Source: an uncultured delta proteobacterium
GTDB lineage: Bacteria; Myxococcota_A; Polyangia; Polyangiales; Polyangiaceae
Reading direction: 5' to 3'
Length of the DNA stretch: 64,000 bases
Assembly: GCA_963763745.1 (NCBI GenBank)
Contig: CAVXQJ010000016.1
Location: 449,029-513,028 of the forward strand
Under the pieces are notes generated by a model that did no database searches, had not been told where the DNA came from, and saw only the letters and a list, made by a program, of their open reading frames with translations. Position numbers and translations under genes: made by a program. Of the stretch, positions 40,067 through 64,000 are shown piece after piece; within the stretch, counting starts at the first letter, position 1; every line of letters begins with the position of its first letter.

Positions 40067-40149
40067 GAATCCCACGGCGATGATATCATGCGCTATGACC
40101 CTATGGTCACGACACGTGCGCCCAACGTGAAATACCGCGCAACCTGCTG

Positions 40150-45718: not shown

Positions 45719-47574
45719 ATGTGCGGAGTTTGTGGTTTCACTGGCGTACGCAATCACGAATCGCTGGTTCGGATGGCGACTGCCATCGCGCACCGTGGAC
45801 CCGACGACGCCGGCTACTGGGAGAGCGACGACGTCTCGCTGGGGATGCGTAGACTCGCCATCATCGACGTCGAGAGTGGCCAGCAACCGGTATTCAACGA
45901 AGATGGTTCAGTCTGCGTCGTGTTCAACGGCGAAGTATACAACCACGCCGAGCTCCGCGCCGACCTTGAATCAAAGGGGCATGCCTTTCGCAGCCATCAC
46001 TCCGACACGGAGGTGCTCGTTCACCTGTACGAAGAATACGGCGAGGAGTTCCTTCATCGGTTAAACGGGATGTTCGCGATCGCGATGTGGGACAACCGGC
46101 ACAAGCGTCTTATTCTCGCGCGCGACCGCGCGGGGATCAAGCCACTCTACTTCACGCAGAGCGGCGGCCGCGTTATTTTGCGTCTGAGATTAAGTCGCTG
46201 CTCGCGCATCCAGACATCAAGAGAGAGCCGTGCTTCACTGCGCTCTACCACTACTTCAGTTTCAAGCACGTGCCGGCGCCGTGGAGCGCATTCGCGGGCA
46301 TCGAACAGCTTCGCCCGGGCGAGAGGGTCATCTTCGAGCGAGGCGTGCTCCGTCGCGAGACTTGGTGGGCACTCAAGTTTCGAGAAGACGGCAAGCTTGA
46401 TGAGAGCGAGGCGGCGACGCGCATTCGCGCTCTCCTCGAAGACGCGGTTCGGATTCGCATGCGTTCGGACGTTCCGTTCGGCGCATACCTCTCGGGCGGC
46501 GTGGACAGCTCGACCATAGTGGCGCTCATGTCGCGCATTGGCGGACGGCGAGTGACAACGTTCTCGCTCGTCTACTCGGACGAGTTCAAACACAAGGCCG
46601 CCGACCAAGAATACGCGCGGCAGATGTCATCGCTTTATGGCACCGATCACCACGAGTACGTGCTCACGCAACGCGACGTTGTCGACAGCATCGGTGCTGT
46701 CGTTGCGTCCTTTGACGAGCCGTTTTCGGGAGTGACTTCCACGTATTTCATCACGCGGCTCATCTCGAAGCACGTCAAAGTCGCACTCTCCGGCGACGGA
46801 GCGGACGAGCTCTTCGGGAGCTACCTTGCGCACAGGCTGGCGCAACCCATTCATCATCTCGAAGTCATGCGCGATCGCTTGACGACACTCACGCCGGAAG
46901 AAAAGAACCTACTCCGGCCGTATCACGACAGACCGGAGTACCTAACAGCGATACTCGAACGCGGCGACGATGCGGCGCGTCGCGCGAGCCTCTACCTGTG
47001 GACCGACGCCGAGAAGGCTGAGCTACTGAGCACCGAAATGCTCGCGCGCGTGCCGCGCGCGAGCACGGAGGGTTTGATACGCGAAGTCTATGCGGCGTCG
47101 GGGACAAACGATCCGTTGAACCGTGCTCTCTACTGCGATTTCGTGACCCTCCTACCGGATCAAGTGCTCGCGTTCGTCGATCGGTTGTCTATGGCGCACT
47201 CGGTTGAAGTGAGGCCGCCGTTCCTCGATTATCGCATTATCGAGCTCGCTGGCACGATCCGCGGATCTATCAAAATCAAGGGCGGAAGAGAAAAGCACGT
47301 ACTAAAGGAAGCCGTCAAAGGACTGATTCCCGACGCGGTGATCAACCGTCCGAAAGAGGGTTTCGTTCTCCCGATCGACGAGTGGCTCGTCTCCGACATG
47401 CGGCCGTTCGTCGAAGAACTCCTCACGCCGTCGCGTCTCATGCGCCACGGCCTCGTGCGGCCTGAGCCCGTGCGAAGAATCTTGGACGAGCACTACGCGC
47501 GAAAGAAAAATCACGGCGCGCGAATCTGGAATCTGATGATGTTCCAGAGCTGGTGCGAGCGCTATGTCACATGA
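45719..47574 (+). CDS. asparagine synthetase family amidotransferase paralog 2 (one frameshift in a T-run at ~46175)
   Basis: MCGVCGFTG (Cys2), RRLAIIDVESGQQPVFNEDGSVCVVFNGEVYN, then a shift at gttattttgcg to ...FASEIKSLLAHP...AYLSGGVDSS...ALSGDGADELFGSY...VEVRPPFLD... Confidence 0.8.
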
Positions 47575-49042
47575 ATTGGCGCAGTTGACCCAGTGGTCGT
47601 CCGCGGCGGAGCGAGTCCTCCGCACCGCCTATGGGGCATTGCTTCTCTTGCAACTCGGCATGACGGCCCGGCAGTCGAAGCGGTTTTTCGTTTCGGAAAA
47701 ACACGGTGGTTACGTCGAGTCGTCGCCGCTGCGCGATAGGCTGCTTACTCCGTGGTCCGCACAGGTGGTGACGGTCGTGTGGATGCTCGCGGCTCTCGGA
47801 ATCGTCGCAGATGTTGCTCTGCTTCCCGCCACCATCGTTAACCTGGCACTCTGTCGCTACTTCTTCGTCGAGATGCGGTGGAAAGGCATCCTTCGCGGCA
47901 TGGGCGCGCCGGGCTACATGACGTATTGGATGGCATGCCTCGTGGCACTATTTGCCCTCGCACACGCCATTGATCGCACGGGATTGCTACGAGCCATTAC
48001 CCTTCTCACCTTCCGCGTCGACTACGCGTTGATCATGTTCATGGCCGGTGTGTACAAGTTGACTGCGGGGTACGCACGTGGTGAGGGATTCGAACGAGGG
48101 CTCGTCAATCCGTGGTGGGGTTTTTGGGCACGGCGGATGCGGAGGCTTCCGCCGCAGGCGGCGGCGTTTCGCGTCCTGAATCATTTGGGCTGGTCGGTGG
48201 AGATCGTCTGCGGCGTGCTATTTCTCGTTCCGCAAGTGGGAGTGTATGCGGGGGCACTCTTCGCCGGTAGTTTTCTGATGATCGCCGCAACGATTCGCCT
48301 CACTTTTCTCGCTGAGATGGTTGCCGTCGGCACCGTATTGTTCGTCTATCCCCACACCGGCTTCGACGATTGGTTGGTCGGCGTCATCCGTGTTTCGGAC
48401 GCGGCACCGTCCGGCTCCACGATTGGGGACGTATTGGCGTGGGCTCTCGTTGCCTGTTTGGTGGTGTACCTGGCGCTGCTTCCGCTCGCGTATGCTGGGA
48501 TGTCGGTCAACTTCTACGCGCGAAAACGCCTAGTGGGTCCGCTACAGCGCTGGCTTGACTGGTGGATCCGCCTGACAGGCCTGATCCTTTGGCGGGTATT
48601 TACGTCCGACGTGATCAACTTCTACGCGGACATCGGCATTCGATCGCAGGCTTCGGATCCCCCCACACCGTATCTGACCATGCGTCCCTGGGACGCGCGG
48701 ACCGAGTGGCGCTACATGCATGTCGGAGAGTTCATCTGCTTGGCGTCGATTTTCACCACTCTCAAGTACTATCCCAAAGATCGTGCGCTGTTCGAGGCGC
48801 GGATCCTACGTTACTGTCGCTCGCTGCCAGTGCCGTCCGGCGGCGAGGTTGTTTTCGACTATCGAACCATCGTAAAAGGTGCGACTGGCTTTGAGTTTCC
48901 CATCGTGGCACGCTTCGTCGTGAACACCGCGACGGGGAAAGTGGAAGAGCATACGCTCGATCCATCGTTCGACCTGCGCGCTCCGGCTCGCGCTTCTCCG
49001 GTATACGCCGGCACGCGCCCAGGCAGTTACGCGCCGAGTTGA
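47564..49042 (+). CDS. polytopic membrane protein, possibly HTTM (vitamin K-dependent gamma-carboxylase-like) domain family
   Basis: ~8-10 TM helices and Trp/Tyr-rich loops (NPWWGFWARRMRRLP). The 11-nt overlap with asnB2 suggests co-translation. The family assignment is from memory of sequence style, not verified. Confidence 0.4.
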   Translation: MSHELAQLTQWSSAAERVLRTAYGALLLLQLGMTARQSKRFFVSEKHGGYVESSPLRDRLLTPWSAQVVTVVWMLAALGIVADVALLPATIVNLALCRYFFVEMRWKGILRGMGAPGYMTYWMACLVALFALAHAIDRTGLLRAITLLTFRVDYALIMFMAGVYKLTAGYARGEGFERGLVNPWWGFWARRMRRLPPQAAAFRVLNHLGWSVEIVCGVLFLVPQVGVYAGALFAGSFLMIAATIRLTFLAEMVAVGTVLFVYPHTGFDDWLVGVIRVSDAAPSGSTIGDVLAWALVACLVVYLALLPLAYAGMSVNFYARKRLVGPLQRWLDWWIRLTGLILWRVFTSDVINFYADIGIRSQASDPPTPYLTMRPWDARTEWRYMHVGEFICLASIFTTLKYYPKDRALFEARILRYCRSLPVPSGGEVVFDYRTIVKGATGFEFPIVARFVVNTATGKVEEHTLDPSFDLRAPARASPVYAGTRPGSYAPS

Positions 49043-49046
49043 TTGG

Positions 49047-50387
49047 TCACGAGGGGCGCGCCGAGAACCCACGGCGCACGGCCGATCGAAACGCGGCCAG
49101 TTCCTGTCGAAAGTCCGGACGAATGAAATGTAACGGCGATTTACCGGAGACGACGCGCAATAGACCGAGCGTCATGCCAAAACCAATGAGCGTCGTGAGC
49201 ACGGTAGCCGTCGCGGCTCCGGCGCCGCGAAGCCGTGGGACCAATACGAAGTTTAATAACAACCCCAATACGCCAATTGCCACGGTGATGGCACCGTTGA
49301 TCCCGAACGCCCCTGCCTTGATGACGTAGGGCGCCGCGAACGACGACACCGACAGAGTCCACGCTGCCAAGATGAGCAGGCGAAACACGTCGCGCGCTTC
49401 CTCGAACGCGACGCCGCCGAACAGGTGCAACAACGGCCCGGCAAACAGCATCGACGGAAGTGTAAGGAGCACGCCACCGTAGACTGCGAGACGCAAAGAC
49501 CGAATCGTCACGGCAAATTCGTCGGACGCATGGATAACCCATGGGTAGAGCGCCATCTGGAAGGCGGCAAAACCGGTAAACAAGCCGAACGCGAGCGTAA
49601 GTGCGGCCGCAAAGAGCCCAGATTGCTTGTCCCCACAATAATGAAACACGATGAGTTGGTTAGCCTTCGTGTACGCGAATACGGATACGGTCGCGACGTG
49701 CTGCTTCAACCCGGCAGAGAGGAACTGCCAGACCGTTGCCGGCGTGAGGCCGCTGACGGGCGAGCGCGTGTCAATGCCCAATTTGCTCAGGAGCGTAACG
49801 CAACCGACGCCTTGAACGGCAATCGCCGTCAGAATCGCAAAGCGAACGTCGATGCGTCGCAGGAAGAACGCCGGGATGACGCACCCGACGTTCACGGTCG
49901 TCTGAAATATGGTCACGAGGGCGACAAGCTTCACGCGGCCGAGCGCCTGTCCCAACGTGACGAGGTTGACGCAGAAGATCGTCGTCACCAGCAGACCGAT
50001 CAAAAGCGGCGCATGAACGATCGCCTCCAACGAAACTTTGCTGGGCCATGCTTCGAACACAGTCAACAGCCCCGCCGCCGCGAGTACGGCCGTGGTGAGG
50101 CTACCGAGCACGACGATCAGCAAGCGCGCGCGGTCGCTCACGTCATATCGGTCGCGGTTGGCAAAGTGATAGATCGCTGTGTTGAGGCTGAGCCCGCAGA
50201 GCGAAACAAAAAGCGCGACCCACGTTTGCATCTCCGCGAGGACGCCGCGTCCGGCCGGCAAGAGAGCGCGGTTGATGAGAGCACCAGCGAACATAGCCCC
50301 TACGAGTTGCGAAACTTGCCCGGAGGCCGTCCAAAAAAAAGAATGTCTGAGGCTGATGATGGCACGCTCAGGCGACCTTATGCTCAT
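49047..50387 (-). CDS. Wzx-like polysaccharide flippase (MOP/PST family)
   Basis: 12-14 TM helices. Typical PST organisation with N-terminal ...WTASGQVSQLVGAMFAGALINRALLPAGRGVLAEMQTW. Last gene of a 5-gene minus-strand operon (ATGA overlaps). Confidence 0.75.
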   Translation of the reverse strand: MSIRSPERAIISLRHSFFWTASGQVSQLVGAMFAGALINRALLPAGRGVLAEMQTWVALFVSLCGLSLNTAIYHFANRDRYDVSDRARLLIVVLGSLTTAVLAAAGLLTVFEAWPSKVSLEAIVHAPLLIGLLVTTIFCVNLVTLGQALGRVKLVALVTIFQTTVNVGCVIPAFFLRRIDVRFAILTAIAVQGVGCVTLLSKLGIDTRSPVSGLTPATVWQFLSAGLKQHVATVSVFAYTKANQLIVFHYCGDKQSGLFAAALTLAFGLFTGFAAFQMALYPWVIHASDEFAVTIRSLRLAVYGGVLLTLPSMLFAGPLLHLFGGVAFEEARDVFRLLILAAWTLSVSSFAAPYVIKAGAFGINGAITVAIGVLGLLLNFVLVPRLRGAGAATATVLTTLIGFGMTLGLLRVVSGKSPLHFIRPDFRQELAAFRSAVRRGFSARPS

Positions 50388-51517
50388 TGCGACTCGTGCA
50401 CAGCGGCGTGAAGGGCTTCAACTGTTGCGCGGACATCGTCCTCAGGCATGCCTGGGTAAAAAGGCAGAGATAGCGTTTCATCGCCGATTGTTTCTGCAAT
50501 TGGGAACCGACCGCGGCGAAATCCGAATCGATTTACGAAGTAGGTTAGTAGGTGGATTGCGCGATAATTCACGACCGTACCAACGCCCGCCTCCCCAAGG
50601 CGCGCAACGACGTGGTCACGAATACGACCGTCCACGCGAACGGGAAAGAGATGTCGTGCGTGGACACCCGCTCGCGTTGCTGGCAGCCGAACACCGACGA
50701 TGGTCGAGAGTTTTCGTTCGTATGCGCGCGCCAGCGCGTGACGCGACGCTAGTTTTGCCGGCAATCGATTGAGCTGCGGGAGAAGTAGCGCGGCCTGGAT
50801 GTTATCCATGTTGTACTTCCAGCCAAGCACTAACATGTCCCAATGCCGATAACCTTCACGCTCGCGATCGGCGGCCGTCTTCGTCATGCCGTGCGAACGC
50901 AACAAACGTAAGCGTTCGGCGAGGTCGTTTCGGTCCGTCGCAACCGCCCCGCCTTCGCCGCATGTGAGGTTCTTCGTTGCATAAAAGCTGAAACAGACGA
51001 CATCCGACAGTTCGCCCGGTCTGACGCCGTCCCGTTCGCCCTCGATGCAATGCGCGGCGTCCTCGATGATCGCGAGGCCGTGCTGCTTGGCGACCCGGTG
51101 GATCTCGCGCATGTCGCACATCAAGCCGTACAGGTGAACGGGGATGATCGCCTTCGTCCGAGGTGTGATGGCTGCTTCGACCAGTCGTGCGTCGATGTTT
51201 GCGGTGTCGGGTTCGACGTCTACGAATATCGGCGTAGCCCCGGCTTCGAGGATAGCGGTGGCTGTCGCGATGAAAGTCATCGGCGTCGTGATTACTTCGT
51301 CGCCGGGACCGATGCCGAGCGCCATCAGCGCCATGTGCAACGCGCCCGTGCAACTCGTCACGCCGAGGACGTGACGACGTCCAATGAAAGCTGCGAACTC
51401 GCACTCGAAACGAGCGACGGTTTCTCCCGTCGTCAAGATCGGACCCGCCAGAACCGAGGCGATGGAGTCGATCTCAGGTTGGCCGAGGTCGTGCCGGTAG
51501 AACGGAACGCGCCTCAA
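50384..51517 (-). CDS. DegT/DnrJ/EryC1/StrS family PLP-dependent sugar aminotransferase
   Basis: ...FECEFAAFIGRRHVLGVTSCTGALHMAL..., FSFYATKNLTCGEGGAV (Lys in the SFxxxK-like motif). Full length, 377 aa. Confidence 0.85.
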   Translation of the reverse strand: MRRVPFYRHDLGQPEIDSIASVLAGPILTTGETVARFECEFAAFIGRRHVLGVTSCTGALHMALMALGIGPGDEVITTPMTFIATATAILEAGATPIFVDVEPDTANIDARLVEAAITPRTKAIIPVHLYGLMCDMREIHRVAKQHGLAIIEDAAHCIEGERDGVRPGELSDVVCFSFYATKNLTCGEGGAVATDRNDLAERLRLLRSHGMTKTAADREREGYRHWDMLVLGWKYNMDNIQAALLLPQLNRLPAKLASRHALARAYERKLSTIVGVRLPATRAGVHARHLFPVRVDGRIRDHVVARLGEAGVGTVVNYRAIHLLTYFVNRFGFRRGRFPIAETIGDETLSLPFYPGMPEDDVRATVEALHAAVHESQ

Positions 51518-52542
51518 TGCAGCTCCCTCGTGCCGTCAGCCAAGACGATGGGTATCTGCCGCATCCACCGCTGAGGAAGCCACCAGTCTTGGTTCGACTT
51601 ATACCAATCGATCGTCTTGCGCAGCCCCTCCTCGAACGAAATGTTCGACTGCCAGTCCAAGAGCTTTTTAGCTTTATTGGCGTTGCATGTGTGCCGAAAC
51701 ACTTGCCCGGGCCGATTACCTACAAAGGCAACTTCGCTCTTGGGGTTATCCATGAGTCGTCTTATCGCGACTGCAATCTCAAGGACACTGTGGTCCTGTC
51801 TGGTACCTAGGTTGATGACTTGACCGATGACGCGCTCGCGATCGGTGTGAATGAGTCTGTCGAGCGCGGTGCAATGGTCGTCGACGTGCAGAAAATCGCG
51901 GCGCGCCGAGCCGTCACCGTGGACGGTCAACGGCTCACCGAGGATGCAACTCGTGATAAAGCGCGGTACGACTTTCTCGAGGTGCTGATAGGGCCCGAAG
52001 TTGTTGAATGGGCGAACAATGATCGCGGGAAGCTGATAGGTCTGCTGATATGAGTACACTAGTCTGTCCGCGCCGCACTTTGCAGCGGCGTACGGGCTCA
52101 TCGGGTTGAGCGGATGGTCCTCGTCCATGTCTTCGGCAATGGCCGAGCCGTAGACTTCGGAGGTCGAGATGTGCACGAAGCGTTCGACGCGGTCGCGGTG
52201 CCGTAGAACGCTGTTGGAAACGACCTGCGTTCCGAGGACGTCGGTTTCGAAAAACAGTCGGTTGTCGAAAATGGATCGCGTGACGTGAGACTCCGCGGCA
52301 AAGTGCAGGACAATATCGGACCGGCTCACGAGCATGTCGACGAGGTCGGCGTTCAGCACGTTGCCGTACCAGAATTCGAAGCGCGAAGAGTTGAGACCGC
52401 CGCCGGGTAAGTTGGTGACGCTACCGGCGTAAGTGAGCGCGTCGAGGACTAGAAGCTGGTATTGTGGATATCTATCGTAGAGATAGCGGACGAAGTTACT
52501 CCCGATGAATCCTGCGCCACCAGTGATCAGAACCGTTTTCAT
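51514..52542 (-). CDS. NDP-hexose 4,6-dehydratase (dTDP-glucose 4,6-dehydratase-like, RmlB family)
   Basis: Start is M101 of the ORF (MKTVLITGGAGFIGSNFVRYLYDRYPQYQLLVLDALTYAGS...ISTSEVYG...YAAAKC). ATGA overlap with the upstream WbqC-like gene. Confidence 0.8.
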   Translation of the reverse strand: MKTVLITGGAGFIGSNFVRYLYDRYPQYQLLVLDALTYAGSVTNLPGGGLNSSRFEFWYGNVLNADLVDMLVSRSDIVLHFAAESHVTRSIFDNRLFFETDVLGTQVVSNSVLRHRDRVERFVHISTSEVYGSAIAEDMDEDHPLNPMSPYAAAKCGADRLVYSYQQTYQLPAIIVRPFNNFGPYQHLEKVVPRFITSCILGEPLTVHGDGSARRDFLHVDDHCTALDRLIHTDRERVIGQVINLGTRQDHSVLEIAVAIRRLMDNPKSEVAFVGNRPGQVFRHTCNANKAKKLLDWQSNISFEEGLRKTIDWYKSNQDWWLPQRWMRQIPIVLADGTRELH

Positions 52543-53228
52543 CGTGAGCCCTCCAATACGGCTGTACTCTCCGGTCCCATGTTCAGTAGTAGATCGAGGC
52601 CGGAAAGATACGGGCAGAAATCGCCGTGCAGTTGACGATAGACAGGATGCTCGTAACCGTGCCACACGACCGAGATGCCCGCGCGAACGAACATACTTTC
52701 GTCGAGGTAGTCCTTTGCCGAGTCGCCGCTGAGATAGCGGTCGGCACCGAAGTGAGAGCAGATCTGGACGAGGCGTTCGCTTTGCCCTCCGTGGATCCCG
52801 AGTTGCGAGGATCGCGCGATTGGCCGCCGCAGCCCAAGCCATTCACACATCAACTTGACGACTTGGATATCGAGATCGACGAGTCTCGTCCACGACTGCA
52901 TGAGGAGCTCCTCGAGTTTGGGCATATAGAGGCGCTTGTGAGGCGAGCGGGCGTAGCTCTGCGCGATGCTGGCGACGTGTTTGCGAGCCCAGTGCGTCCG
53001 GTTGTCGACCTCGACGTCCAGGAGCGTTTGCGTACTGCGGCCTTTCGACAAGACAGGAACCGTGAGCCAAATGGGCCCGCTTGCGGACTTGATGCGATTA
53101 CGATTGCGCCAGCCATGCTTGTCGAACTGCACGTCGTCGTAGTAGACGAAGAAATCGCAACGTCGCAGTTGATCGAAGAAGCCGAGCCACGGAAGGTAAC
53201 CGGGTTGCAAGACGACCACAGTAGTCAT
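52539..53228 (-). CDS. WbqC-like family protein (O-antigen cluster associated, function unknown)
   Basis: MTTVVVLQPGYLPWLGFFDQLRRCDFFVYYDDVQFDKHGWRNRNRI... matches the characteristic N-terminus of the WbqC-like family. Confidence 0.65.
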   Translation of the reverse strand: MTTVVVLQPGYLPWLGFFDQLRRCDFFVYYDDVQFDKHGWRNRNRIKSASGPIWLTVPVLSKGRSTQTLLDVEVDNRTHWARKHVASIAQSYARSPHKRLYMPKLEELLMQSWTRLVDLDIQVVKLMCEWLGLRRPIARSSQLGIHGGQSERLVQICSHFGADRYLSGDSAKDYLDESMFVRAGISVVWHGYEHPVYRQLHGDFCPYLSGLDLLLNMGPESTAVLEGSR

Positions 53229-53761
53229 CGGCCGATGTTAGTTGTCTGGGAGTATTCGTCCGCGAGGATTGACATCACGATCGAGTCGACGGGTGTGCCG
53301 TCGCGTCGTGTGTCGTGCCTCAAACGACCTTCGGTCATGAACCCGAGTTTCTCGTAGAACGCCTGCGCTCGGGGATTGTCGGCGAGCACTCGCAAATGCA
53401 CGCGATCGAGACGAAGAGCGGTGAACGCCCGACCAAGTAACTGCCTGACGGCAGTAGAGCCACCGCCACTTCCGCGACGCTCGCCCAGGTAGATCCAAAG
53501 CTCGCACTTCCTGCGGGTAACGTCGATGTTGCACAGCCCGCAGTTGCCAACATGACGGCCGTTCTCGACAATTGCGTAGTCCTCACGCGTCCGTTCGAGC
53601 CTTTTCGCGTGCCAATACGCGCGGTTGCTATCGGCAGTTGGTGCGGAGGTACAATCGAGTTGTTCGCGAAGTGCGGGATCTTGCAGCCAATCGTGAGTGG
53701 AGGCGAGGTGCTCGTCCGAGAGGCGAACAAGACGAACTTCATCGAGTGCAACCAACGACAT
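53225..53761 (-). CDS. GNAT family N-acetyltransferase
   Basis: ...HVGNCGLCNIDVTRRKCELWIYLGERRGSGGGSTAVRQLLGRAF... acetyl-CoA binding Q/RxxGxG/A motif. First gene of the operon. Confidence 0.75.
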   Translation of the reverse strand: MSLVALDEVRLVRLSDEHLASTHDWLQDPALREQLDCTSAPTADSNRAYWHAKRLERTREDYAIVENGRHVGNCGLCNIDVTRRKCELWIYLGERRGSGGGSTAVRQLLGRAFTALRLDRVHLRVLADNPRAQAFYEKLGFMTEGRLRHDTRRDGTPVDSIVMSILADEYSQTTNIGR

Positions 53762-56999: not shown

Positions 57000-57078
57000 T
57001 CGCGTGACCACACGTACCGCGTCCGCGCATGTACAGCAAGTTGCTTCAGCGCGCGACCTGGGCTACGTGATTGCTGAG

Positions 57079-58964
57079 ATGTGCGGCATCTTGGGCTCCG
57101 TGTTCGACGCTCAATGCATGGACGTCGCCGGCGCGCTCAAGCGCCTACGACACCGTGGGCCCGACGCCGAGGGCGTCTTTCGCGACGAGGGCGTGGTGCT
57201 TGGGCACACGCGGCTTTCGATTCTCGACTTAAGTCCGCTCGGCGTGCAACCGATGCGGAGCGCCGACGGTCGAGCCGTCGTCGTCTTCAATGGTGAAATA
57301 TACAACCATCATGAGCTTCGTGCGGAACTCCAGAAGTGCGGCCGTTCGTTTCGCTCTCGCTCCGATACGGAGGTGATCGTCGAAGGGTATTGCGAATACG
57401 GTGTAGCGTTTTTCGAACGACTTGACGGGATGTTCGCCATCGCCTTGTTCGACCGCAAACAGCGCCGACTCGTTCTCGTGCGCGACCGAACTGGGAAGAA
57501 GCCGCTCTTCTACACCCGCTGCGGCGGCAACGTACGATTCGCCTCGGAGATACGTGCCCTGTTCGCGCTTGGCACTCCGTCGACACTCCGATTGGCGTCG
57601 TTGCCGCTGCTGCTGTCACTCGGGTATGTGCCGCCGCCCGCGACGTTGTACGAACACGTTGCGCAGCTCCCACCGGCCACGATCCTTGACATCACGGAGA
57701 ACGCGTCGCCCGAGGTTCGCACGTTTTGGAGGGCGCCGTTCAACGCGGAGCCGCTCGACGTCGGCGTAATCGAAGCAACGCGCGAGGTGCGGCGCCTCAC
57801 CGAGCAAGCGGTGCTGAGACGCCTTGAAGCGGACGTGCCGCTCGGTGCATTTCTGTCGGGCGGCATCGATTCGTCGGTCGTCGTCGGGTTGATGGCGCGC
57901 ATGTCGACGAAGCGTGTGAAGACATTCTCCATCGGATTTTCGCAAGACGCCCGTTTCGACGAAACGCGTTACGCGCGAATCGCCTCCGATGCATTCGACA
58001 CCGATCACACTGAATTTACCCTCGAGCCAAGCTCGATCGACTTGCTCGATCGTCTCGTCGAGGCTCACGACGGTCCGTTCGGGGATTCGTCTGCAGTCCC
58101 CACGAGCGTCGTATCGATGCTGACGCGCAAGCACGTGACGGTAGCGCTTACGGGCGACGGTGGAGACGAGTTGTTCGCTGGATACAACATCTTTCTCCGC
58201 GTGACGGCCGCCGAAGCCGTGCCCCAACCGCTTCGAACGCTCGCACGGGCGCTAACAACACACCTTCCGTTAGACGGTCAAGCCTTCAATCGGTTGACAC
58301 GCGCCCTACACGTGGCGGCGCTATCGCTTCCCGAACGAATGCTGCACTGGCAGTCGTATTTCACGAACGACCTTGGCGCGCTCTTGACGCGCGAGCTGCG
58401 CACGAGCGTCGATTTGGATGCCGCTAAGAGTTGGATTCGTCTGCTCGGCGCGCGCACGGGGGCCGCCTCTCCACTAACACGCGCGTTGCAGATCAACTTC
58501 GATTCGTACCTACCATTTGACTTGCTGGTGAAGGCCGACCGTGCATCGATGCTTCATTCGCTAGAGCTCCGATCCCCGTTCCTCGACACCGAGCTCATCG
58601 AATACGCCTCACGGCTGCCGGATCGCTTCCGCCGGCGTCACAGAGTCACCAAATGGATCTTGCGGCGCGCCTTCCGCGACATTGTTCCAGCGCCGATTCT
58701 TCACGCGGCAAGATGGGATTTGGCATGCCGCTCGCGACGTGGTTTCGAACGAGCCTTCGGGAGCTCGTCCGAGACACGCTATGCAGGTCGGCTCGCCTCG
58801 GGCAGTTCGTCGATCTGGCCTACGTCGACCGCTTGCTCGATGAGCACGACAGCGGCGTGCGCGATCACCATAATCCGATATGGCTTCTCTTGACGATGGA
58901 GCGCTGGCTGCATCTTCTCCCCACGTGGACGCGAATGACGAACGCACCAGAGGTATCAGTATGA
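57079..58964 (+). CDS. asparagine synthetase family amidotransferase paralog 3 (one frameshift ~58705, probably a G-run indel)
   Basis: MCGILGSVFD (Cys2), TRLSILDLSPLGVQPMRSADGRAVVVFNGEIYNHHEL, AFLSGGIDSSVVV, ALTGDGGDELFAGY, LELRSPFLD. After ...APILHA the frame shifts to ...KMGFGMPLATWFRTSLRELVRDTL...*. Confidence 0.8.
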
Positions 58965-59986
58965 ATGCCTCGCCGCCGCTTGTGTCCGTGCTCGTTCCGA
59001 CCATCGGTCGCCCCGAGTTCTTCGACGACCTGCTGCGTTCGGTACGCCAACAGACGTATGCCAACATCGAAGTCGTAGTTCTCGACAATGCGAGCGGCGA
59101 CGACGCGGCGCGCGCATTCGCCGAATGGGCGCGCACCGACTCGCGTGTACGCGTGCGCCGGCTGGAATCACGCGTCCCGGTCTTTCGCAACCTCAACCGT
59201 GGCATTGCGGAAGCGAAGGGTAAATACGTCGTCTTCTTTCATGACGACGATGTTTATGCAGCGGCGCTTCTTGCGCGTGCGGTCGACGCGCTCGAGGCCT
59301 ATCCACGCGCTCGATTCTTCGCCAGCAACTACGACTTCGTCGACGAACGCGGCGTTCTGACGGAAAAGCGGCGATGGATTCGCCGCGACGCATGCATTCC
59401 CGGACGCCAATTCGTCGAAATGATGCTCCACCGCGGTCGCGGAATCGTGGTGACGCCGGGAGTCGTGTTCCGCCGTTCCACACTCGACGACGGCTTCGAC
59501 GAACGGCTATCGCTCCACTACGGTGATTACATAATACTGATGCGAATGGCCGAGCGCGGCGACGTGTACTTAGGCACCGACGCCCTCGTCAGCATTCGCC
59601 GACACGCTGCTCAGCAAAGTCTAGAGATGTCATTTTCCGCAGGCGATACGGCAGCGGACGAACTTGTTCCTCGATTATTGCGATGGATATCTGAGCCGGC
59701 ACCCCAACGATGCACGATTCATTCGCTCGATGAGGCGGCGCGTGATTTTGCTTCACCGTATCGGGCTCGTATGGGGATGGGCGACGGCGACCAACGACGC
59801 CGAGGCGTCGGCCTGCACGCGCGAACTCCGGGAAGCCGTCCGCGGTGTGGACCCGGCGCTGCGCGTTATCGAAGGTTTGAACGGCAGACGATGGGTTGGG
59901 CGCTTCGCGGGCCGCGCGAAGAAGCTAGGAGCACTTCTCGGTATGTAGCCACTCAAGCACGTCGCGCAGGCCTGATGTGCGATTGA
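58961..59986 (+). CDS. glycosyltransferase family 2
   Basis: VSVLVPTIGRPEFFDDLLRSVRQQTYANIEVVVLDNASGDD...FFHDDDV (DxD). ATGA overlap with asnB3. The last ~100 aa are low-complexity. An alternative C-terminus (ORF 59664..59948) suggests a possible frameshift near 59660. Confidence 0.7.
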   Translation: MNASPPLVSVLVPTIGRPEFFDDLLRSVRQQTYANIEVVVLDNASGDDAARAFAEWARTDSRVRVRRLESRVPVFRNLNRGIAEAKGKYVVFFHDDDVYAAALLARAVDALEAYPRARFFASNYDFVDERGVLTEKRRWIRRDACIPGRQFVEMMLHRGRGIVVTPGVVFRRSTLDDGFDERLSLHYGDYIILMRMAERGDVYLGTDALVSIRRHAAQQSLEMSFSAGDTAADELVPRLLRWISEPAPQRCTIHSLDEAARDFASPYRARMGMGDGDQRRRGVGLHARTPGSRPRCGPGAARYRRFERQTMGWALRGPREEARSTSRYVATQARRAGLMCD

Positions 59987-60833
59987 AATGTGGGCGAAAG
60001 CCCAGCTCCTCTCGCAGCCGCGCGACGTCGGCGACGATGTAGTCGGGGTCATCCGCGCGACGTGGCAGCGCTCCGAGGATGACCTTGCCACCGAGCAATC
60101 GTTCGAGCGTGCGTGCGATGTCGGCGACCACGACGGGCTCTCCGGAGGCTACATTGACGGGGCCGCTCACATGCGAGTCAATGATCGCGACCAACGCCCT
60201 GGCCGCATCGCCGACATGCATGAAATCGCGAACCTGGTGTCCGTGGCTGCAAAGGGCCTCTTCTCCGCGCAACATTGCACTTGCGATAGAAGTTACAAAG
60301 CGTCGCCGGTCTTCGTGCGGCCCGTAGAGAAAGAAGACACGTGCATGTGCCCAGGATAGGCCCGATTGAGTTGCGTAAGCCGCGACGACCCGCCTGAGTG
60401 CGTCTTTGCACACACCATAAGCGGTTGATGGTGCGATGCGCGATGTTGCTTCGCGAAGCGCTTCGCTTCCTTCCCACGCATACTCAGCGCAACTGCCAAC
60501 TGTAACGACGCGCTGCCCCCCCCCTTCACGGAACGCGCGAACGAGCTCGATCGATGCGGCAGCCCAACGCAGATTCTCAGGCGAATGCCAGAAGAGCCCA
60601 TGTTCGCTATACCAAGCGATGTGTAATAAGGATTCTGGCTTTGCGGCTGCCAGGAGCTTCGACCGTCCGTCCGCGGACAAAAGGTCGGCACGGTGCCAAA
60701 TGACGTGCTCAATATTGAGTGGTGGGATGGCCTCAACATGAGATGCATGCACTTCATACCCGGCCGCGAGCAGTTCGCTGACCGCATGACGGCCGATGAA
60801 TCCGCCCGCGCCAGTAACAAGGACCGATCGCAT
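59925..60833 (-). CDS. NAD(P)-dependent epimerase/dehydratase family protein (short-chain dehydrogenase fold; candidate NDP-4-keto sugar reductase/epimerase)
   Basis: MRSVLVTGAGGFIGRHAVSELLAAGYEV...YGVCK (YxxxK). 302 aa. Confidence 0.75.
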   Translation of the reverse strand: MRSVLVTGAGGFIGRHAVSELLAAGYEVHASHVEAIPPLNIEHVIWHRADLLSADGRSKLLAAAKPESLLHIAWYSEHGLFWHSPENLRWAAASIELVRAFREGGGQRVVTVGSCAEYAWEGSEALREATSRIAPSTAYGVCKDALRRVVAAYATQSGLSWAHARVFFLYGPHEDRRRFVTSIASAMLRGEEALCSHGHQVRDFMHVGDAARALVAIIDSHVSGPVNVASGEPVVVADIARTLERLLGGKVILGALPRRADDPDYIVADVARLREELGFRPHFNRTSGLRDVLEWLHTEKCS

Positions 60834-60836
60834 GGC

Positions 60837-62060
60837 TCAAACGATTCGAACGTCGGGTATCGGCACGATGAACTTGCCGCCGGCATCACGGTACGCCGCT
60901 TGTTGACGCAGAATTTCGTCCGCGAAGTTCCATGTAAGAAGTAGGCAGTAGTCCGGCATCGCCTCTGCAAGGTGCGCTGGGCCGAGAATCGGAATGTGTG
61001 AGCCTGGCATGTAATGATTTTGTTTGTGGGGACTGCGGTCAACCACGAAGTCGATTGTGTCGGCGCCGATACCCATGTACGTTAGTAGGGTGGTTCCCTT
61101 AGCCGCAGCACCATAAGCCGCGACACGCTTGCCTTGGCGTTTTAGATCGGCAAGCAGTGTCTTGAGAGTGTCGCGCAGTGTTTGGACTCGGCGCGCGAAA
61201 GTGCGGTAGAAAGCGAGATGGCCCATCCCCATGTGCGCTTCTTCTTCGAGAAGCCGTTTGACGTTCTCTCCGCGCTGAAAGCTTGATGCCGGAGACACAA
61301 AAATGCGAAGCGAGCCACCGTGCATCGGTATGTGTTCCACGTCCCGCAGCACCAAACCGCTACGGGCAAACAGTTTATCAAGCGCAGTCGCGGAAAAGTA
61401 ACAAAGATGTTCATGGTAGATCGTATCGAATTCGCATCGCTCAACGAGATCGCGCACATAGGGCGCTTCGATGATCGCAACACCAGTCGGCTTCAACAGC
61501 GTAGCAATGCCCTCAACCACCCCGTTGAGATCTGCAACGTGCGCGAGCACGTTGTTGGCATGAAGGACGTCGACACGTTTGCCATCGCGAGCAAGCTCAC
61601 TGGCTAACTCGGATCCGAAAAACTTCGCAAGCGTTGGAACGTTGCGTTCTTCGACGGCAACACGAGCAATATTGGTCGCGGGCTCGATGCCGAGTACTGG
61701 CACGCCGGCCTGGACATAATGTTGCAGCAGGTAGCCATCATTGCTCGCAATCTCGACAACAAACGAGTTGCGCGTAAGCTTTTCGGTTTCGATCATTCGC
61801 GTCGCGATGGTCTTCGCATGTGTGACCATCGTGTCGGAAAACGAGGAGAAATAGAGGTAGTCGGAGAAGAGCACGTCAGGCGGGACGGTCTCAGTGATCT
61901 GAACCAGCGTGCAGCAAGCGCAGAAGGCTAGGTCCAGTGGATACGTTTGCTCCGGACGCGACAATTCCTGCTCCGTGAGCAGTGAGTTCGCGAGCGGCGT
62001 CCTGCCAAGTGAGAGGATGAGGTCAAGATCAGTGGCCTGGCAGAGACGACAACGAGTCAT
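60837..62060 (-). CDS. NDP-hexose C-methyltransferase (TylC3-like family, N-terminal Zn-ribbon plus class I MTase)
   Basis: MTRCRLCQ...CACCTLVQ Cys4 ribbon; VVEIASNDGYLL; the C-terminal domain pattern matches sugar 3-C-methyltransferases. Confidence 0.7.
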   Translation of the reverse strand: MTRCRLCQATDLDLILSLGRTPLANSLLTEQELSRPEQTYPLDLAFCACCTLVQITETVPPDVLFSDYLYFSSFSDTMVTHAKTIATRMIETEKLTRNSFVVEIASNDGYLLQHYVQAGVPVLGIEPATNIARVAVEERNVPTLAKFFGSELASELARDGKRVDVLHANNVLAHVADLNGVVEGIATLLKPTGVAIIEAPYVRDLVERCEFDTIYHEHLCYFSATALDKLFARSGLVLRDVEHIPMHGGSLRIFVSPASSFQRGENVKRLLEEEAHMGMGHLAFYRTFARRVQTLRDTLKTLLADLKRQGKRVAAYGAAAKGTTLLTYMGIGADTIDFVVDRSPHKQNHYMPGSHIPILGPAHLAEAMPDYCLLLTWNFADEILRQQAAYRDAGGKFIVPIPDVRIV

Positions 62061-62207
62061 GCGTGATTCTTCTACTTTCTGCACCAGCTGCGTGCAAGAG
62101 CGGGTGGACGCTACAAGCCGACAATGCTAGAGACGCTGCGGAATCAGGGGACATTCACTGAATCCGGAGCTCGGAAGAGCAACGAACACACTCGTGCGGG
62201 ACGAATC

Positions 62208-63290
62208 ATGGCGAGAACAAGTGACGTTATCATCGAGGACGCGCGGTGGATCGTGGATCGGATGGAAACCGCCATGAATCCGTTACGTGGCACGACGTTG
62301 TTGTTGACGGGCGCCGGCGGGTTCCTTTGTAGCTTTATCCTGGACGTGCTGGTGGAGTTCAACAGGCGTCGGGGATCACCTGTGCGCATTCTCGCGGTTG
62401 ACAATTTCCTGAGCGGTGTGCCCGATCGCGTTGCACACCACAAGGGGCTTGCCGACGTCGTTCTGCTCACACACGACATGAGTAAACCGCTTGACGCACC
62501 AGAACCGTATCAATGGGTCATTCATGGCGCAAGCATCGCATCCCCCACGTTCTATCGCCGCTTCCCTCTCGAAACGATCGACGTGAATGTGAATGGCACT
62601 TGGCACCTACTCGAGATGTGCCGCACTCACCCCGAGATACGCAGTCTGGTATTTCTTAGCACCAGTGAGATTTACGGTGATCCGACACCTGATGCGATTC
62701 CGACGCCCGAGACGTATCGCGGCTTTGTGTCGTGTACCGGACCGCGTGCTTGCTACGATGAATCGAAACGCCTGGGTGAGACGCTGTGCACGACATACCA
62801 TCGGCTTCATCACATACCGGTGAAGACGGTTCGGCCGTTCAACGTCTACGGACCTGGTCAGCGGCTCGACGACATGCGCATCATGCCGGATCTCATTCGC
62901 GCGGCGCTTAGGCGAATGCCGATTATTCTCCATAGCGACGGTCGCGCAACGAGAGCATTCTGCTACGTGCGTGATGCAGCTTCGGCGATGCTTCATATCT
63001 TGCTCTCTGAAGCAAACGGAGAAGCGTTTAATGTGGGGAACGACGAAGAAGAGATTCCAATGACCGAGGTCGCCAAGCGCGTCGTGGAAGTCGCGGGGCC
63101 TCCTGCGATTAGAATCGACCACAAGGTCAGCGACGATCCGCTCTACCTTTCTGACAACCCTCTGAGACGCTGTCCCGATCTTAGCAAGCTGCGCAAGTAC
63201 TTCCCAACATGGTCGCCGACCGTGACCCTCCGCGAGGGCATCGCGCGCACCCTGCGTTCCTATCCGGCTGAGCCGGGGGAGGTCTCGTGA
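62208..63290 (+). CDS. NAD-dependent epimerase/dehydratase, UDP-glucuronate decarboxylase (UXS/ArnA C-terminal domain)-like
   Basis: Start is M29 of the ORF. LLLTGAGGFLCSFILDVL (GxxGxxG), STSEIYG, YDESKR (YxxxK). Confidence 0.7.
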   Translation: MARTSDVIIEDARWIVDRMETAMNPLRGTTLLLTGAGGFLCSFILDVLVEFNRRRGSPVRILAVDNFLSGVPDRVAHHKGLADVVLLTHDMSKPLDAPEPYQWVIHGASIASPTFYRRFPLETIDVNVNGTWHLLEMCRTHPEIRSLVFLSTSEIYGDPTPDAIPTPETYRGFVSCTGPRACYDESKRLGETLCTTYHRLHHIPVKTVRPFNVYGPGQRLDDMRIMPDLIRAALRRMPIILHSDGRATRAFCYVRDAASAMLHILLSEANGEAFNVGNDEEEIPMTEVAKRVVEVAGPPAIRIDHKVSDDPLYLSDNPLRRCPDLSKLRKYFPTWSPTVTLREGIARTLRSYPAEPGEVS

Positions 63291-64000
63291 ACGTCACGAT
63301 CTTCGGTGCCGGCTATGTCGGTCTTGTCACTGGCACGTGCTTGGCCGCGATTGGCCATGACGTAACTTGTGTTGATGTCGTACGCGAGCGCGTCGACGCT
63401 ATCAACGCTGGCAAAACGCCAATCTACGAAAGCGGTCTCGACAAGCTCCTCGCCGACACGCTATCCACCGGGCGTTTTCGGGCAACCGTCGACGCCGAAA
63501 ACGCGCTTCGGAACAGCGACCTGTCCATGATTGCTGTCGGAACCCCACCGCGCGGCGATCAGATTGACCTATCATACGTTGAACAAGTCGCCCGGACGAT
63601 CGGCCGCCATCTGCGCCACCGCGACGGGCGCCATACGGTGGTCGTCAAGAGCACCGTAGTGCCTGGCACGACGGCCGGACTTGTGCGTGAAAAATTGGAA
63701 CACGAAGCAAACAAGAAGGCCGGCAAGGACTTTGGGCTTGCGATGAACCCTGAGTTTCTCAGGGAAGGATGCGCCGTAGACGATTTCATGAATCCGGATC
63801 GCGTCGTCATTGGCCAGTTTGATGGCAGATCGGGCGATGCGGTTGCGGAACTGTATGCGCGCTTCGACTGTCCAAAACCTCGCGTGACGCTCGTCGATGC
63901 CGAGTTCATCAAGTACGCATCTAACACTCTTCTAGCCACGCTCGTTTCCTTCAGTAATGAACTCTATAGGCTTTGCGAAAACACCACCGGCGCAGACGGC
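63287..64000 (+). CDS. ugd: UDP-glucose 6-dehydrogenase, 3' end beyond window
   Basis: GTG overlaps the upstream stop (GTGA). VNVTIFGAGYVGLVTGTCLAAIGHDVTCVDV...GKTPIYESGL...MIAVGTP...AMNPEFLREG canonical UDP-Glc/GDP-Man dehydrogenase N-terminus. Confidence 0.85.
   Translation, partial: MNVTIFGAGYVGLVTGTCLAAIGHDVTCVDVVRERVDAINAGKTPIYESGLDKLLADTLSTGRFRATVDAENALRNSDLSMIAVGTPPRGDQIDLSYVEQVARTIGRHLRHRDGRHTVVVKSTVVPGTTAGLVREKLEHEANKKAGKDFGLAMNPEFLREGCAVDDFMNPDRVVIGQFDGRSGDAVAELYARFDCPKPRVTLVDAEFIKYASNTLLATLVSFSNELYRLCENTTGADG

Follow-up and report, generated by a model that had tools for sequence, protein, structure and literature searches.

A TylC3-family C-methyltransferase and its partner reductase in a bacterial polysaccharide locus: predicted last steps to a 6-deoxy-3-C-methylhexose

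The methyltransferase, its partner reductase, and the surrounding locus

The window analyzed here, meaning the whole stretch of 64,000 nucleotides, contains on its minus strand a gene (60837..62060) for a 407-aa C-methyltransferase (C-MT), which was assigned to the TylC3/TcaB9/KijD1/MtmC family from Pfam domains, PDB alignments, and conserved residues. The start codon (MTRCRLC) agrees with the public annotation (P0121). Pfam identified in the product a putative zinc-binding domain (Methyltransf_13, PF08421; E 1e-21, residues 4-65), a class I SAM domain (Methyltransf_23, PF13489; E 4e-17), and the C-methyltransferase C-terminal domain (Methyltransf_14, PF08484; E 4e-61, profile positions 1-160 of 160). 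Among proteins of solved structure, KijD1 (PDB 5t64; E 1.4e-90), MtmC (PDB 4rv9; E 3.6e-88), and TcaB9 (PDB 3ndi; E 7e-83, 38% identity over 402 aligned residues) are each collinear with residues 2-406 of the C-MT, the aligned chain running from 13 to 415 in 5t64 and 3ndi.

The zinc ligands of the C-MT (C4, C7, C47, and C50) have cysteine counterparts in TcaB9 and do not vary among 20 relatives. In 2012, Bruender and Holden reportedly mutagenized the active-site residues Tyr76, His181, Tyr222, Glu224, and His225 of TcaB9, and we take the PDB chain numbering to be offset by +2 from these residue numbers. All five have conserved counterparts in the C-MT (Y68, H174, Y215, E217, and H218), which are likewise invariant in the 20 relatives. 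The C-MT has in common with TcaB9, KijD1, MtmC, and TylC3 the zinc, SAM, and Methyltransf_14 domains and the catalytic Tyr/His/Tyr/Glu/His set. It differs from them in two respects. First, it is located in a polysaccharide locus, whereas they belong to actinomycete antibiotic pathways. Second, the partners of its clade are CDP-glucose enzymes, whereas theirs are dTDP enzymes.

An earlier note on this DNA had proposed a Zn-ribbon plus methyltransferase protein of the NDP-hexose 3-C-methyltransferase family, and the Pfam domains, PDB alignments, and zinc cysteines bear this out; the HMM assignment that it suggested as a check recovers both Methyltransf_13 and Methyltransf_14, and the ORFs were found at exactly the coordinates that it gave. 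Because the protein, judged by its sequence, genuinely belongs to the TylC3/TcaB9 family of NDP-sugar C-methyltransferases, the note's reservation that C-MT active-site residues might be missing falls away, all five TcaB9 residues being kept. The protein is predicted to transfer a methyl group from SAM to C-3 of an NDP-4-ketosugar.

The next gene (59925..60833, minus strand) encodes a 302-aa extended SDR, SDR302 (PF01370, E 2e-39). Its ATG, as read from the sequence, lies 3 nt past the C-MT stop codon, and the two genes form one two-gene operon. Motifs seen in SDR302 are GAGGFIG (residue 8), GSCAEY with the catalytic Ser (113), and YGVCK (139). In 24 of 80 genome loci, and also in contig L083, the methyltransferase is directly followed by a homologue of SDR302 with 33-56% identity, and SDR302 is 36-46% identical to the terminal SDRs of the rfbF-type cassettes described below. 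We infer that SDR302 is the NDP-3-C-methyl-4-ketosugar 4-ketoreductase that finishes the branched sugar, and the same applies to its substrate and to the stereochemistry of the reduction. The Pfam E-values of the C-MT and of both SDRs that flank it are far beyond chance.

SDR302 was also considered as a bifunctional epimerase/reductase resembling GDP-fucose synthase. This assignment was rejected, as the Cys109/His179 acid/base pair of E. coli Fcl is not matched. In the SDR302 family, the position of the Fcl Cys is shifted by one (motif G[ST]CxEY), and that of His179 is occupied by Arg throughout, even in cassettes with a separate epimerase.

The polysaccharide-locus setting claimed for the C-MT is confirmed by the glycosyltransferases, Wzy_C-domain protein, priming GT4, and Wzx candidate found around it. 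Frameshifts affect the flanking AsnB-like and GT2 genes as well as another AsnB-like paralogue (45719-47574), about 13 kb to the left. In L083, the homologue of SDR302 is frameshifted into pieces of 228 and 66 aa.

The divergent UXS-type gene, Ugd, and an RmlB-family protein

On the plus strand, an extended SDR of UXS type (62208..63290; PF01370, E 8e-43) is read divergently from the C-MT. It comprises 360 aa from the annotated start (P0127, M29) and 388 aa in its longest open reading frame (62124-63290), here called SDR388. The intergenic region (62061..62207) measures 147 bp to the annotated start and 63 bp to the first ATG at 62124. A sigma-70 consensus scan of this region returned no site; gene orientation suggests that promoters lie within it.

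The alignment of the plus-strand SDR with human UXS1 (2b69; E 1e-46, query residues 30-352) covers the whole catalytic domain at only about 30-35% identity, whereas its matches to dTDP-glucose dehydratases reach only about 1e-15 to 1e-19. The hallmarks of human UXS1 are a Thr-Ser-Glu catalytic motif, YxxxK, and a conserved Arg. In the window protein, STSEIYG (151), YDESK (183), and TRAF (248) align with the UXS1 counterparts, and STSE, YxxxK, and TRAF are shared. Its stop codon overlaps, as GTGA in the sequence, the GTG start of a gene for a nucleotide-sugar 6-dehydrogenase of Ugd type (63287..64000, plus strand), of which the window holds the first 237 codons before ending inside the gene. 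The Ugd-type protein matches PF03721 (E 2e-62) and TIGR03026 (260 bits against a cut-off of 190), passes only the generic nucleotide-sugar dehydrogenase model, and shares 73% identity with Ugd of L083, which is full length at 453 aa.

Each of the closest relatives of the UXS-type SDR (P0128, 78%; P0129, 70%; P0133, 64%) is followed by an overlapping Ugd gene, and a C-MT is missing near the latter two. The pairing with Ugd is seen in L083-L090, and in L086 and L088-L090 it occurs without a C-MT. Among the 80 methyltransferase loci, none contains an SDR388-like gene (at least 40% identity) and two contain a Ugd-like gene. By homology, 62208-63290 encodes a UDP-glucuronate-decarboxylase-type enzyme translationally coupled to the Ugd that makes its substrate, and the two would form a separate module leading to UDP-xylose or a related pentose, outside the C-methyl sugar pathway. 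The earlier note had described the methyltransferase as flanked by two SDR epimerase/reductases, the three forming a trio. The flanking genes are indeed both SDRs at the Pfam level, but they encode two kinds of enzyme in two transcription units. The trio itself does not stand, the relatives of the plus-strand SDR (64-78% identity) being always found with Ugd and usually with no C-MT nearby.

A further SDR of the RmlB family (51514..52542, minus strand, 342 aa) belongs to an atypical STSE subfamily and lies in a GNAT-WbqC-SDR-DegT-Wzx cassette (49047-53761). Against TIGR01181 (dTDP-glucose 4,6-dehydratase) it scores 333.4 bits, below the cut-off of 365.1. It reads STSEVYG, as do all 120 of its 120 nearest homologues, compared with STDEVYG in three solved dTDP-glucose 4,6-dehydratases (6bi4, 2hun, and 1r66). 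The GNAT-WbqC-SDR-aminotransferase-Wzx cassette is conserved in contigs L091 and L092 and recurs without any C-MT. The RmlB-like SDR probably serves an aminosugar pathway.

CDP-glucose cassettes of related methyltransferases

The usual gene order around related C-MTs is cytidylyltransferase, 4,6-dehydratase, C-MT, (RmlC-like) epimerase, and reductase. This widespread, uncharacterised cassette (rfbF - rfbG-like - C-MT - rmlC-like - SDR) is exemplified by L001, L020, L026, L054, and L093, and the window C-MT is 63-67% identical to the methyltransferases of such cassettes and nested among them. A nucleotidyltransferase and a 4,6-dehydratase are present in most loci of related C-MTs; RfbF-like genes lie within 6 kb of the C-MT in 61 of 80 loci, and in 56 of 67 once loci with less than 2.5 kb of upstream sequence are set aside. 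In L001, the cytidylyltransferase matches TIGR02623 (glucose-1-phosphate cytidylyltransferase; 353 bits, cut-off 300), and the CDP-glucose-4,6-dehydratase-like SDR scores 214 bits, which is the protein's best match yet below the model's 278-bit cut-off; C-MT, epimerase, and SDR follow it in this order. P0003, a C-MT 67% identical to that of the window, lies within the canonical dehydratase-MT-epimerase-reductase order. A simple neighbor-joining tree, which was built without TylC3, NovU, and CBU0691, placed the C-MTs of the window and L083 inside the CDP-cassette clade beside L001 and the actinomycete dTDP enzymes outside it.

The C-MT family comprises 4,739 clusters at 50% identity in bacteria and archaea. 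Its close homologues number more than 8,000 and its genome loci more than 600, in many phyla. These counts, together with published LPS precedents (PMC3539893, PMC7203242, PMC12961483), contradict the earlier view that the finding is uncommon.

Of the rfbF-type cassette, only the C-MT and the SDR are kept in the window, with the cytidylyltransferase predicted to be displaced and the dehydratase and epimerase absent. In the syntenic contigs L083-L085, genes for an SDR302-like protein and the C-MT lie on one strand, genes for a UXS-like protein, Ugd, a 319-aa protein, and an FkbM methyltransferase lie on the other, and a convergent glucose-1-phosphate cytidylyltransferase gene (453 bits) ends the arrangement. 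Purely from this synteny, at 67-78% protein identity, a glucose-1-phosphate cytidylyltransferase gene is predicted about 3 kb past the right end of the window. No 4,6-dehydratase was found in L083-L085. The window has neither a sugar-1-phosphate nucleotidyltransferase (no RmlA) nor an epimerase, and it lacks a canonical CDP- or dTDP-glucose 4,6-dehydratase, so that nothing in it accounts for the supply of the 4-keto substrate. A tblastn search of the window gave no RmlC-like cupin, and no member of the NDP-hexose 2,3-dehydratase, 3-ketoreductase, or 5-epimerase families was present among the ORFs scanned from 28.8 to 64 kb, the small ones in part.

Proposed pathway, alternatives, and significance

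With somewhat better than even confidence, we propose that the C-MT and SDR302 carry out the last two steps to a nucleotide-activated 6-deoxy-3-C-methyl-hexose for the polysaccharide of this locus, most likely in CDP-linked form. Family membership, catalytic residues, operon structure, and synteny are matters of observation; for the substrate, nucleotide, methylated carbon, and stereochemistry, the following is suggested. The C-MT would bind an NDP-4-keto-6-deoxyhexose, and the C-3 proton beside the 4-keto group would be removed, His218 being the counterpart of the proposed TcaB9 base. The methyl group of SAM would then be transferred to C-3, and SDR302 would reduce the 4-keto group. Since there is no 3,5-epimerase gene, the sugar should remain in the D series. 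With no 2,3-dehydratase, the 2-OH would be kept and the product would not be mycarose; with no genes for 2- or 3-deoxygenation or amination, the expected product is a 6-deoxy-3-C-methylhexose, not mycarose or tetronitrose. The nucleotide is most likely CDP because the C-MT clade is normally found in a cassette that also holds cytidylyltransferase, CDP-glucose 4,6-dehydratase-like, and reductase genes, and of this cassette only the C-MT and the reductase would have stayed together in the window lineage. The earlier note had named mycarose as an example of the product. Given that no 2,3-dehydratase, 3-ketoreductase, or epimerase was found among the ORFs scanned and that 2-deoxygenation genes are missing, this example is not supported. 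Its broader expectation of a methyl-branched sugar in a polysaccharide is a fair prediction, because a bona fide C-MT is present in a polysaccharide locus.

In Coxiella burnetii, the TylCIII-like C-methyltransferase CBU0691 has been proposed to act in the synthesis of virenose (6-deoxy-3-C-methylgulose) of the LPS O-antigen, in a pathway for which GDP-mannose was proposed and a dTDP route also considered (PMC3539893, PMC5843353). By description, the window C-MT is similar to CBU0691 in its TylC3 family, its surface-polysaccharide locus, its adjoining SDRs, and its predicted 6-deoxy-3-C-methylhexose. Unlike the GDP-mannose proposal for Coxiella, its relatives point to CDP-glucose. Other examples are 3-C-methylrhamnose in O-polysaccharides (PMC7203242) and 3-C-methylmannose in H. 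pylori (PMC12961483).

A dTDP route, in which the RmlB-family protein (51514-52542) would provide dTDP-4-keto-6-deoxyglucose, the C-MT would act at C-3, and both SDRs would be epimerase/reductases of a mycarose-type pathway, appears unlikely. It is true that the solved relatives TcaB9, KijD1, and MtmC all use dTDP-sugars, that the locus also contains the RmlB-family SDR at a distance of 8 kb, and that the window itself is devoid of CDP enzymes. However, the plus-strand SDR is UXS-type and Ugd-coupled, and RmlA, 2,3-dehydratase, and epimerase are all missing from the window. Furthermore, the C-MT clade is tied to RfbF rather than RmlA and is embedded in CDP-glucose cassettes, and in the RmlB-like protein the catalytic Asp is absent (STSE, not STDE), the score is below the NCBIfam cut-off of TIGR01181, and the surrounding aminosugar cassette is one that is also conserved where there is no C-MT. 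These last points also tell against the earlier note's suggestion that RmlB supplies the 4-keto-6-deoxy substrate.

Alternatively, the C-MT/SDR302 pair may have been cut from its cytidylyltransferase and dehydratase by rearrangement and may no longer supply a sugar, or the module could be decaying, given its frameshifted neighbours and the frameshifted SDR302 homologue of L083. No catalytic residue is missing from either window ORF, and both ORFs are intact and full length. Retention of the C-MT-SDR arrangement in the window and in L083-L084, despite a protein identity of only about 67%, speaks for selection. We consider a stranded remnant quite unlikely, even though the canonical cassette is without its front half, AsnB-like and GT2 genes are frameshifted, and the L083 homologue is split; the frameshifts may be assembly errors.

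A branched pentose is very unlikely. Here, Ugd would oxidize UDP-glucose or, via RfbF, CDP-glucose, and the UXS-type SDR would decarboxylate the product and let go of an NDP-4-keto-pentose; the C-MT would act at C-3, SDR302 at C-4, and the FkbM protein would O-methylate to give a 3-C-methyl-pentose. Such chemistry is feasible, because C-3 adjoins the 4-keto group of a UXS/ArnA-type intermediate, and the Ugd-type protein fits the generic dehydrogenase model only. In the window and in L083-L085, the C-MT/SDR302 and UXS-like/Ugd operons lie next to each other in divergent orientation, with RfbF and FkbM close by and no 4,6-dehydratase in the conserved neighbourhood. This association is nevertheless limited to one lineage (SDR388-like genes in 0/80 and Ugd-like genes in 2/80 methyltransferase loci), UXS-like/Ugd pairs of 64-70% identity are also found where there is neither a C-MT nor RfbF, and P0003, an equally close C-MT (67%), is part of a canonical 4,6-dehydratase cassette. 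We know of no 3-C-methyl pentose or CDP-glucuronate, and to our knowledge neither a class of 3-C-methyl (possibly O-methyl) pentoses nor a decarboxylase-fed route has been described in bacteria.

C-5 methylation is among the least probable readings: C-5 methyltransferases such as NovU also belong to the C-MT family, but all five TcaB9 residues for C-3 methylation are conserved. The same low rank is given to a C-MT that is also the 4-ketoreductase, as MtmC (4rv9, E 4e-88) is according to the passage of PMC3539893 that cites its 4-ketoreductase and C-methyltransferase activities, but the C-MT has a dedicated reductase gene translationally adjacent to it.

As for the 6-deoxy-3-C-methylhexose that we favor, the enzyme type is very common in environmental bacteria, and 3-C-methyl sugars are already established in O-antigens. 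The assignment is of use in glycan structure prediction, and a branched sugar as such is not surprising. Of broader interest is the very widespread and biochemically uncharacterised CDP-glucose-linked C-MT cassette, with RfbF beside the C-MT in about 80% of loci. Chemically, CDP-activated 3-C-methyl sugars such as CDP-vinelose of Azotobacter have been known since the 1960s, and we know of no genes assigned to them; the cassette is an obvious candidate. The window holds a rearranged, partial copy and is therefore not the ideal starting place for this idea. If the C-MT and SDR302 are active, the organism would carry a surface polysaccharide with a methyl-branched 6-deoxyhexose, a hydrophobic and unusual epitope of the evalose/virenose type.

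Methyltransferase and putative partner reductase

Three clean open reading frames were found in the interval flagged by the earlier note, at the coordinates it had assigned to them. On the minus strand, the methyltransferase (60837–62060, 407 aa) starts at an ATG at 62060, which is also the start of the public protein, and is followed by a short-chain dehydrogenase/reductase (SDR) of 302 aa, SDR302 (59925–60833). SDR302 starts 3 nt past the methyltransferase stop codon, and because of this spacing the two genes form one operon. On the plus strand, the longest ORF of the UXS-like SDR (62124–63290) encodes 388 aa, while the public annotation (P0127) starts at M29 (62208) and gives 360 aa. Its stop codon is overlapped (GTGA) by a fourth gene of the Ugd type, which begins with a GTG at 63287 and exits the window end. 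The G+C content of the window is 58–68%, and a promoter and terminator consensus scan of 59700–62400 returned no more sites than shuffled sequence.

Judged from its sequence, the methyltransferase is a member of the sugar C-methyltransferase family. Pfam searches identified zinc-binding (Methyltransf_13, E 1e-21) and class I SAM (Methyltransf_23, E 4e-17) domains, as well as Methyltransf_14, the C-terminal domain of C-methyltransferases, which is matched over its full length (E 4e-61, positions 1–160 of 160 in the profile). The only strong PDB matches were three structurally characterised sugar C-3 methyltransferases, KijD1 (5t64, E 1.4e-90), MtmC (4rv9, E 3.6e-88), and TcaB9 (3ndi, E 7e-83), each of which spans query residues 2–406; with TcaB9, the protein shares 38% identity across 402 aligned residues. 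The zinc cysteines are C4, C7, C47, and C50. The active-site set of TcaB9 (Tyr76, His181, Tyr222, Glu224, and His225, with a PDB chain numbering offset of +2) aligns with Y68, H174, Y215, E217, and H218, and all nine of these zinc and active-site positions are invariant in 20 relatives. Domains, PDB matches, and residues all indicated a C-methyltransferase, with neither a grouping with O-methyltransferases nor a loss of the C-methyltransferase residues. Some representatives of the family (P0395, P0408, P0428, P0450, P0465, and P0508; 550–955 aa) are fusion proteins, in which the methyltransferase unit occupies one end, N- or C-terminal, and is joined to partner domains.

SDR302 is a generic extended SDR with a GAGGFIG motif, the catalytic Ser in GSCAEY, and YGVCK. 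Of 80 related genome loci, 24 carry an SDR302 homologue directly after the methyltransferase, as does the closest relative, metagenomic contig L083; identities are 33–56%. SDR302 would be the 4-ketoreductase that finishes the sugar. The lack of an epimerase would be explained if SDR302 were an epimerase/reductase like GDP-fucose synthase, but this reading was rejected, as the Cys is not in register and Arg occupies the His179 position. In L083 (2189–3120, minus strand), the SDR302 homologue beside the closest methyltransferase relative is broken into pieces of 228 and 66 aa, either because this metagenomic contig has a frameshift or because the reductase is decaying.

Neighbouring modules in the polysaccharide locus

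The methyltransferase and its two flanking SDRs had been read as a trio. Among structures, the plus-strand SDR matches human UDP-glucuronate decarboxylase entries best (E 1e-46), compared to about 1e-15 to 1e-19 for dTDP-glucose dehydratases, and the decarboxylase motifs STSE(I/V)YG, GPRACYDE(S/G)KR, and TRAF are present. The gene overlapping its stop codon encodes a nucleotide-sugar 6-dehydrogenase (Ugd; TIGR03026). An overlapping Ugd gene is next in all three of the nearest UXS-like relatives (78%, 70%, and 64% identity), and no C-methyltransferase lies near the latter two. Among 80 methyltransferase loci, none contains a close relative of the UXS-like SDR and two contain Ugd. On account of these motifs, the Ugd coupling, and the separate occurrence elsewhere, the supposed trio is better described as two back-to-back modules, a C-methyltransferase with its reductase and a UXS-type decarboxylase with Ugd. 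As a main reading, the UXS-like SDR as stand-in for the missing CDP-glucose 4,6-dehydratase was rejected, given its decarboxylase-type motifs, its far better match to UXS1, and its constant coupling to Ugd. A metagenome scan with the UXS-like protein gave a single, uninformative match of 29% identity.

Nucleotidyltransferase, RfbG-like dehydratase, and cupin epimerase genes were not found by tblastn across the 64-kb window. Three metagenomic contigs (L083–L085) are syntenic with its right end. Their order runs from an AsnB-like gene through SDR302-like (56%) and C-methyltransferase (67%) genes on the opposite strand to UXS-like (78%) and Ugd (73%) genes, a 319-aa protein without family match, an FkbM-family methyltransferase, and finally a convergent 257-aa glucose-1-phosphate cytidylyltransferase (TIGR02623, 453 bits). 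Because of this cytidylyltransferase in the syntenic contigs, an enzyme that forms CDP-glucose is expected some 3 kb past the right end of the window. Like the window, L083–L085 showed no dehydratase. A 319- to 336-aa protein, with no Pfam or NCBIfam match, and a 279-aa FkbM-family methyltransferase stand beside the UXS-like/Ugd pair both in these contigs (L083 6920–8719) and in L088–L090 (L088 5688–7567), where no C-methyltransferase lies near the group. From synteny with both sets of contigs, these two genes are expected just right of the window end.

An RmlB 4,6-dehydratase (51514–52542, minus strand) had been proposed to supply the 4-keto-6-deoxy substrate. Its product resembles dTDP-glucose 4,6-dehydratases (E 6e-79) and scores below the NCBIfam cut-off for this enzyme (333 vs. 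365 bits). It carries STSEVYG in place of the STDEVYG of three solved enzymes, with Ser at the position of the catalytic Asp, and STSEVYG is common to all 120 nearest homologues. The gene is part of a minus-strand five-gene cassette (49047–53761), together with genes for a GNAT protein (53225–53761), a WbqC protein (52539–53228), a DegT aminotransferase (50384–51517), and a Wzx candidate (49047–50387). The RmlB-like gene was invariably found in this conserved cassette, for instance in Rhodocyclaceae and Magnetospirillum MAGs, where no C-methyltransferase was called in the surrounding 17–21 kb. The RmlB-like enzyme probably feeds the adjacent aminotransferase; with its STSE motif, sub-cut-off score, and aminotransferase cassette, it cannot be assumed to supply the C-methyltransferase with dTDP-4-keto-6-deoxyglucose. 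Searches of the membrane-protein ORFs at 38975–41394 and 47564–50387 for a Wzx/Wzy assignment gave no Pfam match at E up to 0.05, and the Wzx candidate is named from its position in the conserved cassette and about nine predicted transmembrane segments.

Other genes of the locus gave several side observations. First, there are three plus-strand asparagine-synthase-like amidotransferase paralogues (31295–32494, 45719–47574, and 57004–58964), the third of which scores 445 bits, below cut-off, against the XrtA/PEP-CTERM-system model TIGR03108; they hint at amidation of uronic acids or at an EPS locus of the PEP-CTERM type. Second, three apparent frameshifts were noted, representing either pseudogenes or assembly indels: the third paralogue switches frame near 58650–58790 relative to its intact 619-aa L083 homologue, the second is split at about 46120–46168, and a GT2 gene (58880–59986, plus strand) shows by its GC3 signal a change of coding frame near 59560–59600, so that its real end is probably at 59948. 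The GT2 gene has no counterpart in the syntenic L083; in the window, its ORF overlaps the AsnB-like gene on one side and the 3′ end of SDR302 on the other, and its site looks like a point of insertion or rearrangement. Third, the 609-aa product of 42406–44235 (plus strand) has its best NCBIfam match among KedN5-family methylcobalamin-dependent radical-SAM C-methyltransferases (E 8e-57; 193 bits, cut-off 700) and is a potential second C-methylating enzyme of the same polysaccharide locus.

Relationship to a CDP-glucose cassette

The C-methyltransferase family comprises at least 8,000 proteins at E 1e-20 in a word-indexed search and 4,739 clusters at 50% identity in an exhaustive search at E 1e-30. 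The window protein matched at least 600 genome loci at 47–62% identity, which among the matches listed were spread over Chloroflexota, Acidobacteriota, Planctomycetota, Verrucomicrobiota, Proteobacteria, candidate phyla radiation bacteria, and archaea. Gene order was strikingly constant: a glucose-1-phosphate cytidylyltransferase (in locus L001, 353 bits to TIGR02623, cut-off 300), a 4,6-dehydratase-type SDR whose best-matching model is CDP-glucose 4,6-dehydratase, the C-methyltransferase, often an RmlC-like epimerase, and an SDR. The cytidylyltransferase lies within 6 kb of the methyltransferase in 61 of 80 loci (56 of 67 when loci with enough upstream sequence are counted), and at least 34 of 81 loci have an RmlC-like gene as the next one after the methyltransferase. 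In a second cassette type (L041 8121–11215; about half of L002–L081), the cytidylyltransferase precedes a GalE-like SDR, which shares only about 25–30% identity with the RfbG-like dehydratase, and the C-methyltransferase, downstream of which a reductase was usually not detected.

In a neighbour-joining tree, the window methyltransferase paired with that of L083 and then L001 inside the CDP-cassette clade, with TcaB9, KijD1, and MtmC outside. The locus of a 67% identical relative (P0003) has the canonical dehydratase–methyltransferase–epimerase–reductase order. Given this nesting and the canonical order in P0003, the window arrangement is a derived, partial copy.

Predicted product and alternatives

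The C-methyltransferase would deprotonate its predicted substrate, an NDP-4-keto-6-deoxyhexose, at C-3 and then methylate C-3 from SAM, and SDR302 would afterwards reduce the 4-keto group. The nucleotide is most likely CDP, an assignment we favour by a little over even chances. As the window has no epimerase gene and no 2-deoxygenation genes were found in the scanned ORFs from 28.8 to 64 kb, the product is predicted to be a D-series 6-deoxy-3-C-methylhexose of the evalose/virenose class and not mycarose. The analysis itself establishes family membership, catalytic residues, operon structure, and synteny; substrate, nucleotide, regiochemistry, and stereochemistry are predictions. The FkbM methyltransferase predicted downstream might O-methylate the C-methyl sugar or the xylose.

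It is possible that the methyltransferase and SDR302 are a stranded or decaying remnant, as frameshifts affect the two adjoining genes on their left (AsnB-like and GT2), the second AsnB-like paralogue, and the L083 reductase; however, both ORFs of the pair are intact in the window. A dTDP pathway in which RmlB feeds the trio is weakened by the non-equivalence of the two SDRs, the CDP-cassette kinship of the methyltransferase, the genes absent from the window, and the atypical RmlB. A branched-pentose pathway, in which the methyltransferase would use the 4-keto-pentose of the UXS-type decarboxylase, would neatly account for the absent dehydratase and employ every neighbouring gene, but is very improbable, since the association is seen in only one lineage and each module occurs independently elsewhere.

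Both the enzyme type in LPS loci and 3-C-methyl sugars in O-antigens have precedents. Coxiella CBU0691, a TylC3-type methyltransferase of an LPS locus, was proposed to act in virenose formation (PMC3539893), 3-C-methylrhamnose is an O-antigen component in Burkholderia andropogonis and Azorhizobium caulinodans (PMC7203242), and 3-C-methylmannose is one in H. pylori (PMC12961483). Given these TylC3-type enzymes and 3-C-methyl sugars in LPS and O-antigens, a C-methyltransferase in a polysaccharide locus is not new in kind. The earlier note correctly spotted the enzyme and over-interpreted the details; its description of the find as uncommon does not fit a very large family with LPS precedents. 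Three side results stand out: how extensive the uncharacterised CDP-linked cassette is, the STSE subfamily of RmlB-like proteins, and the KedN5-family-like B12 radical-SAM gene.
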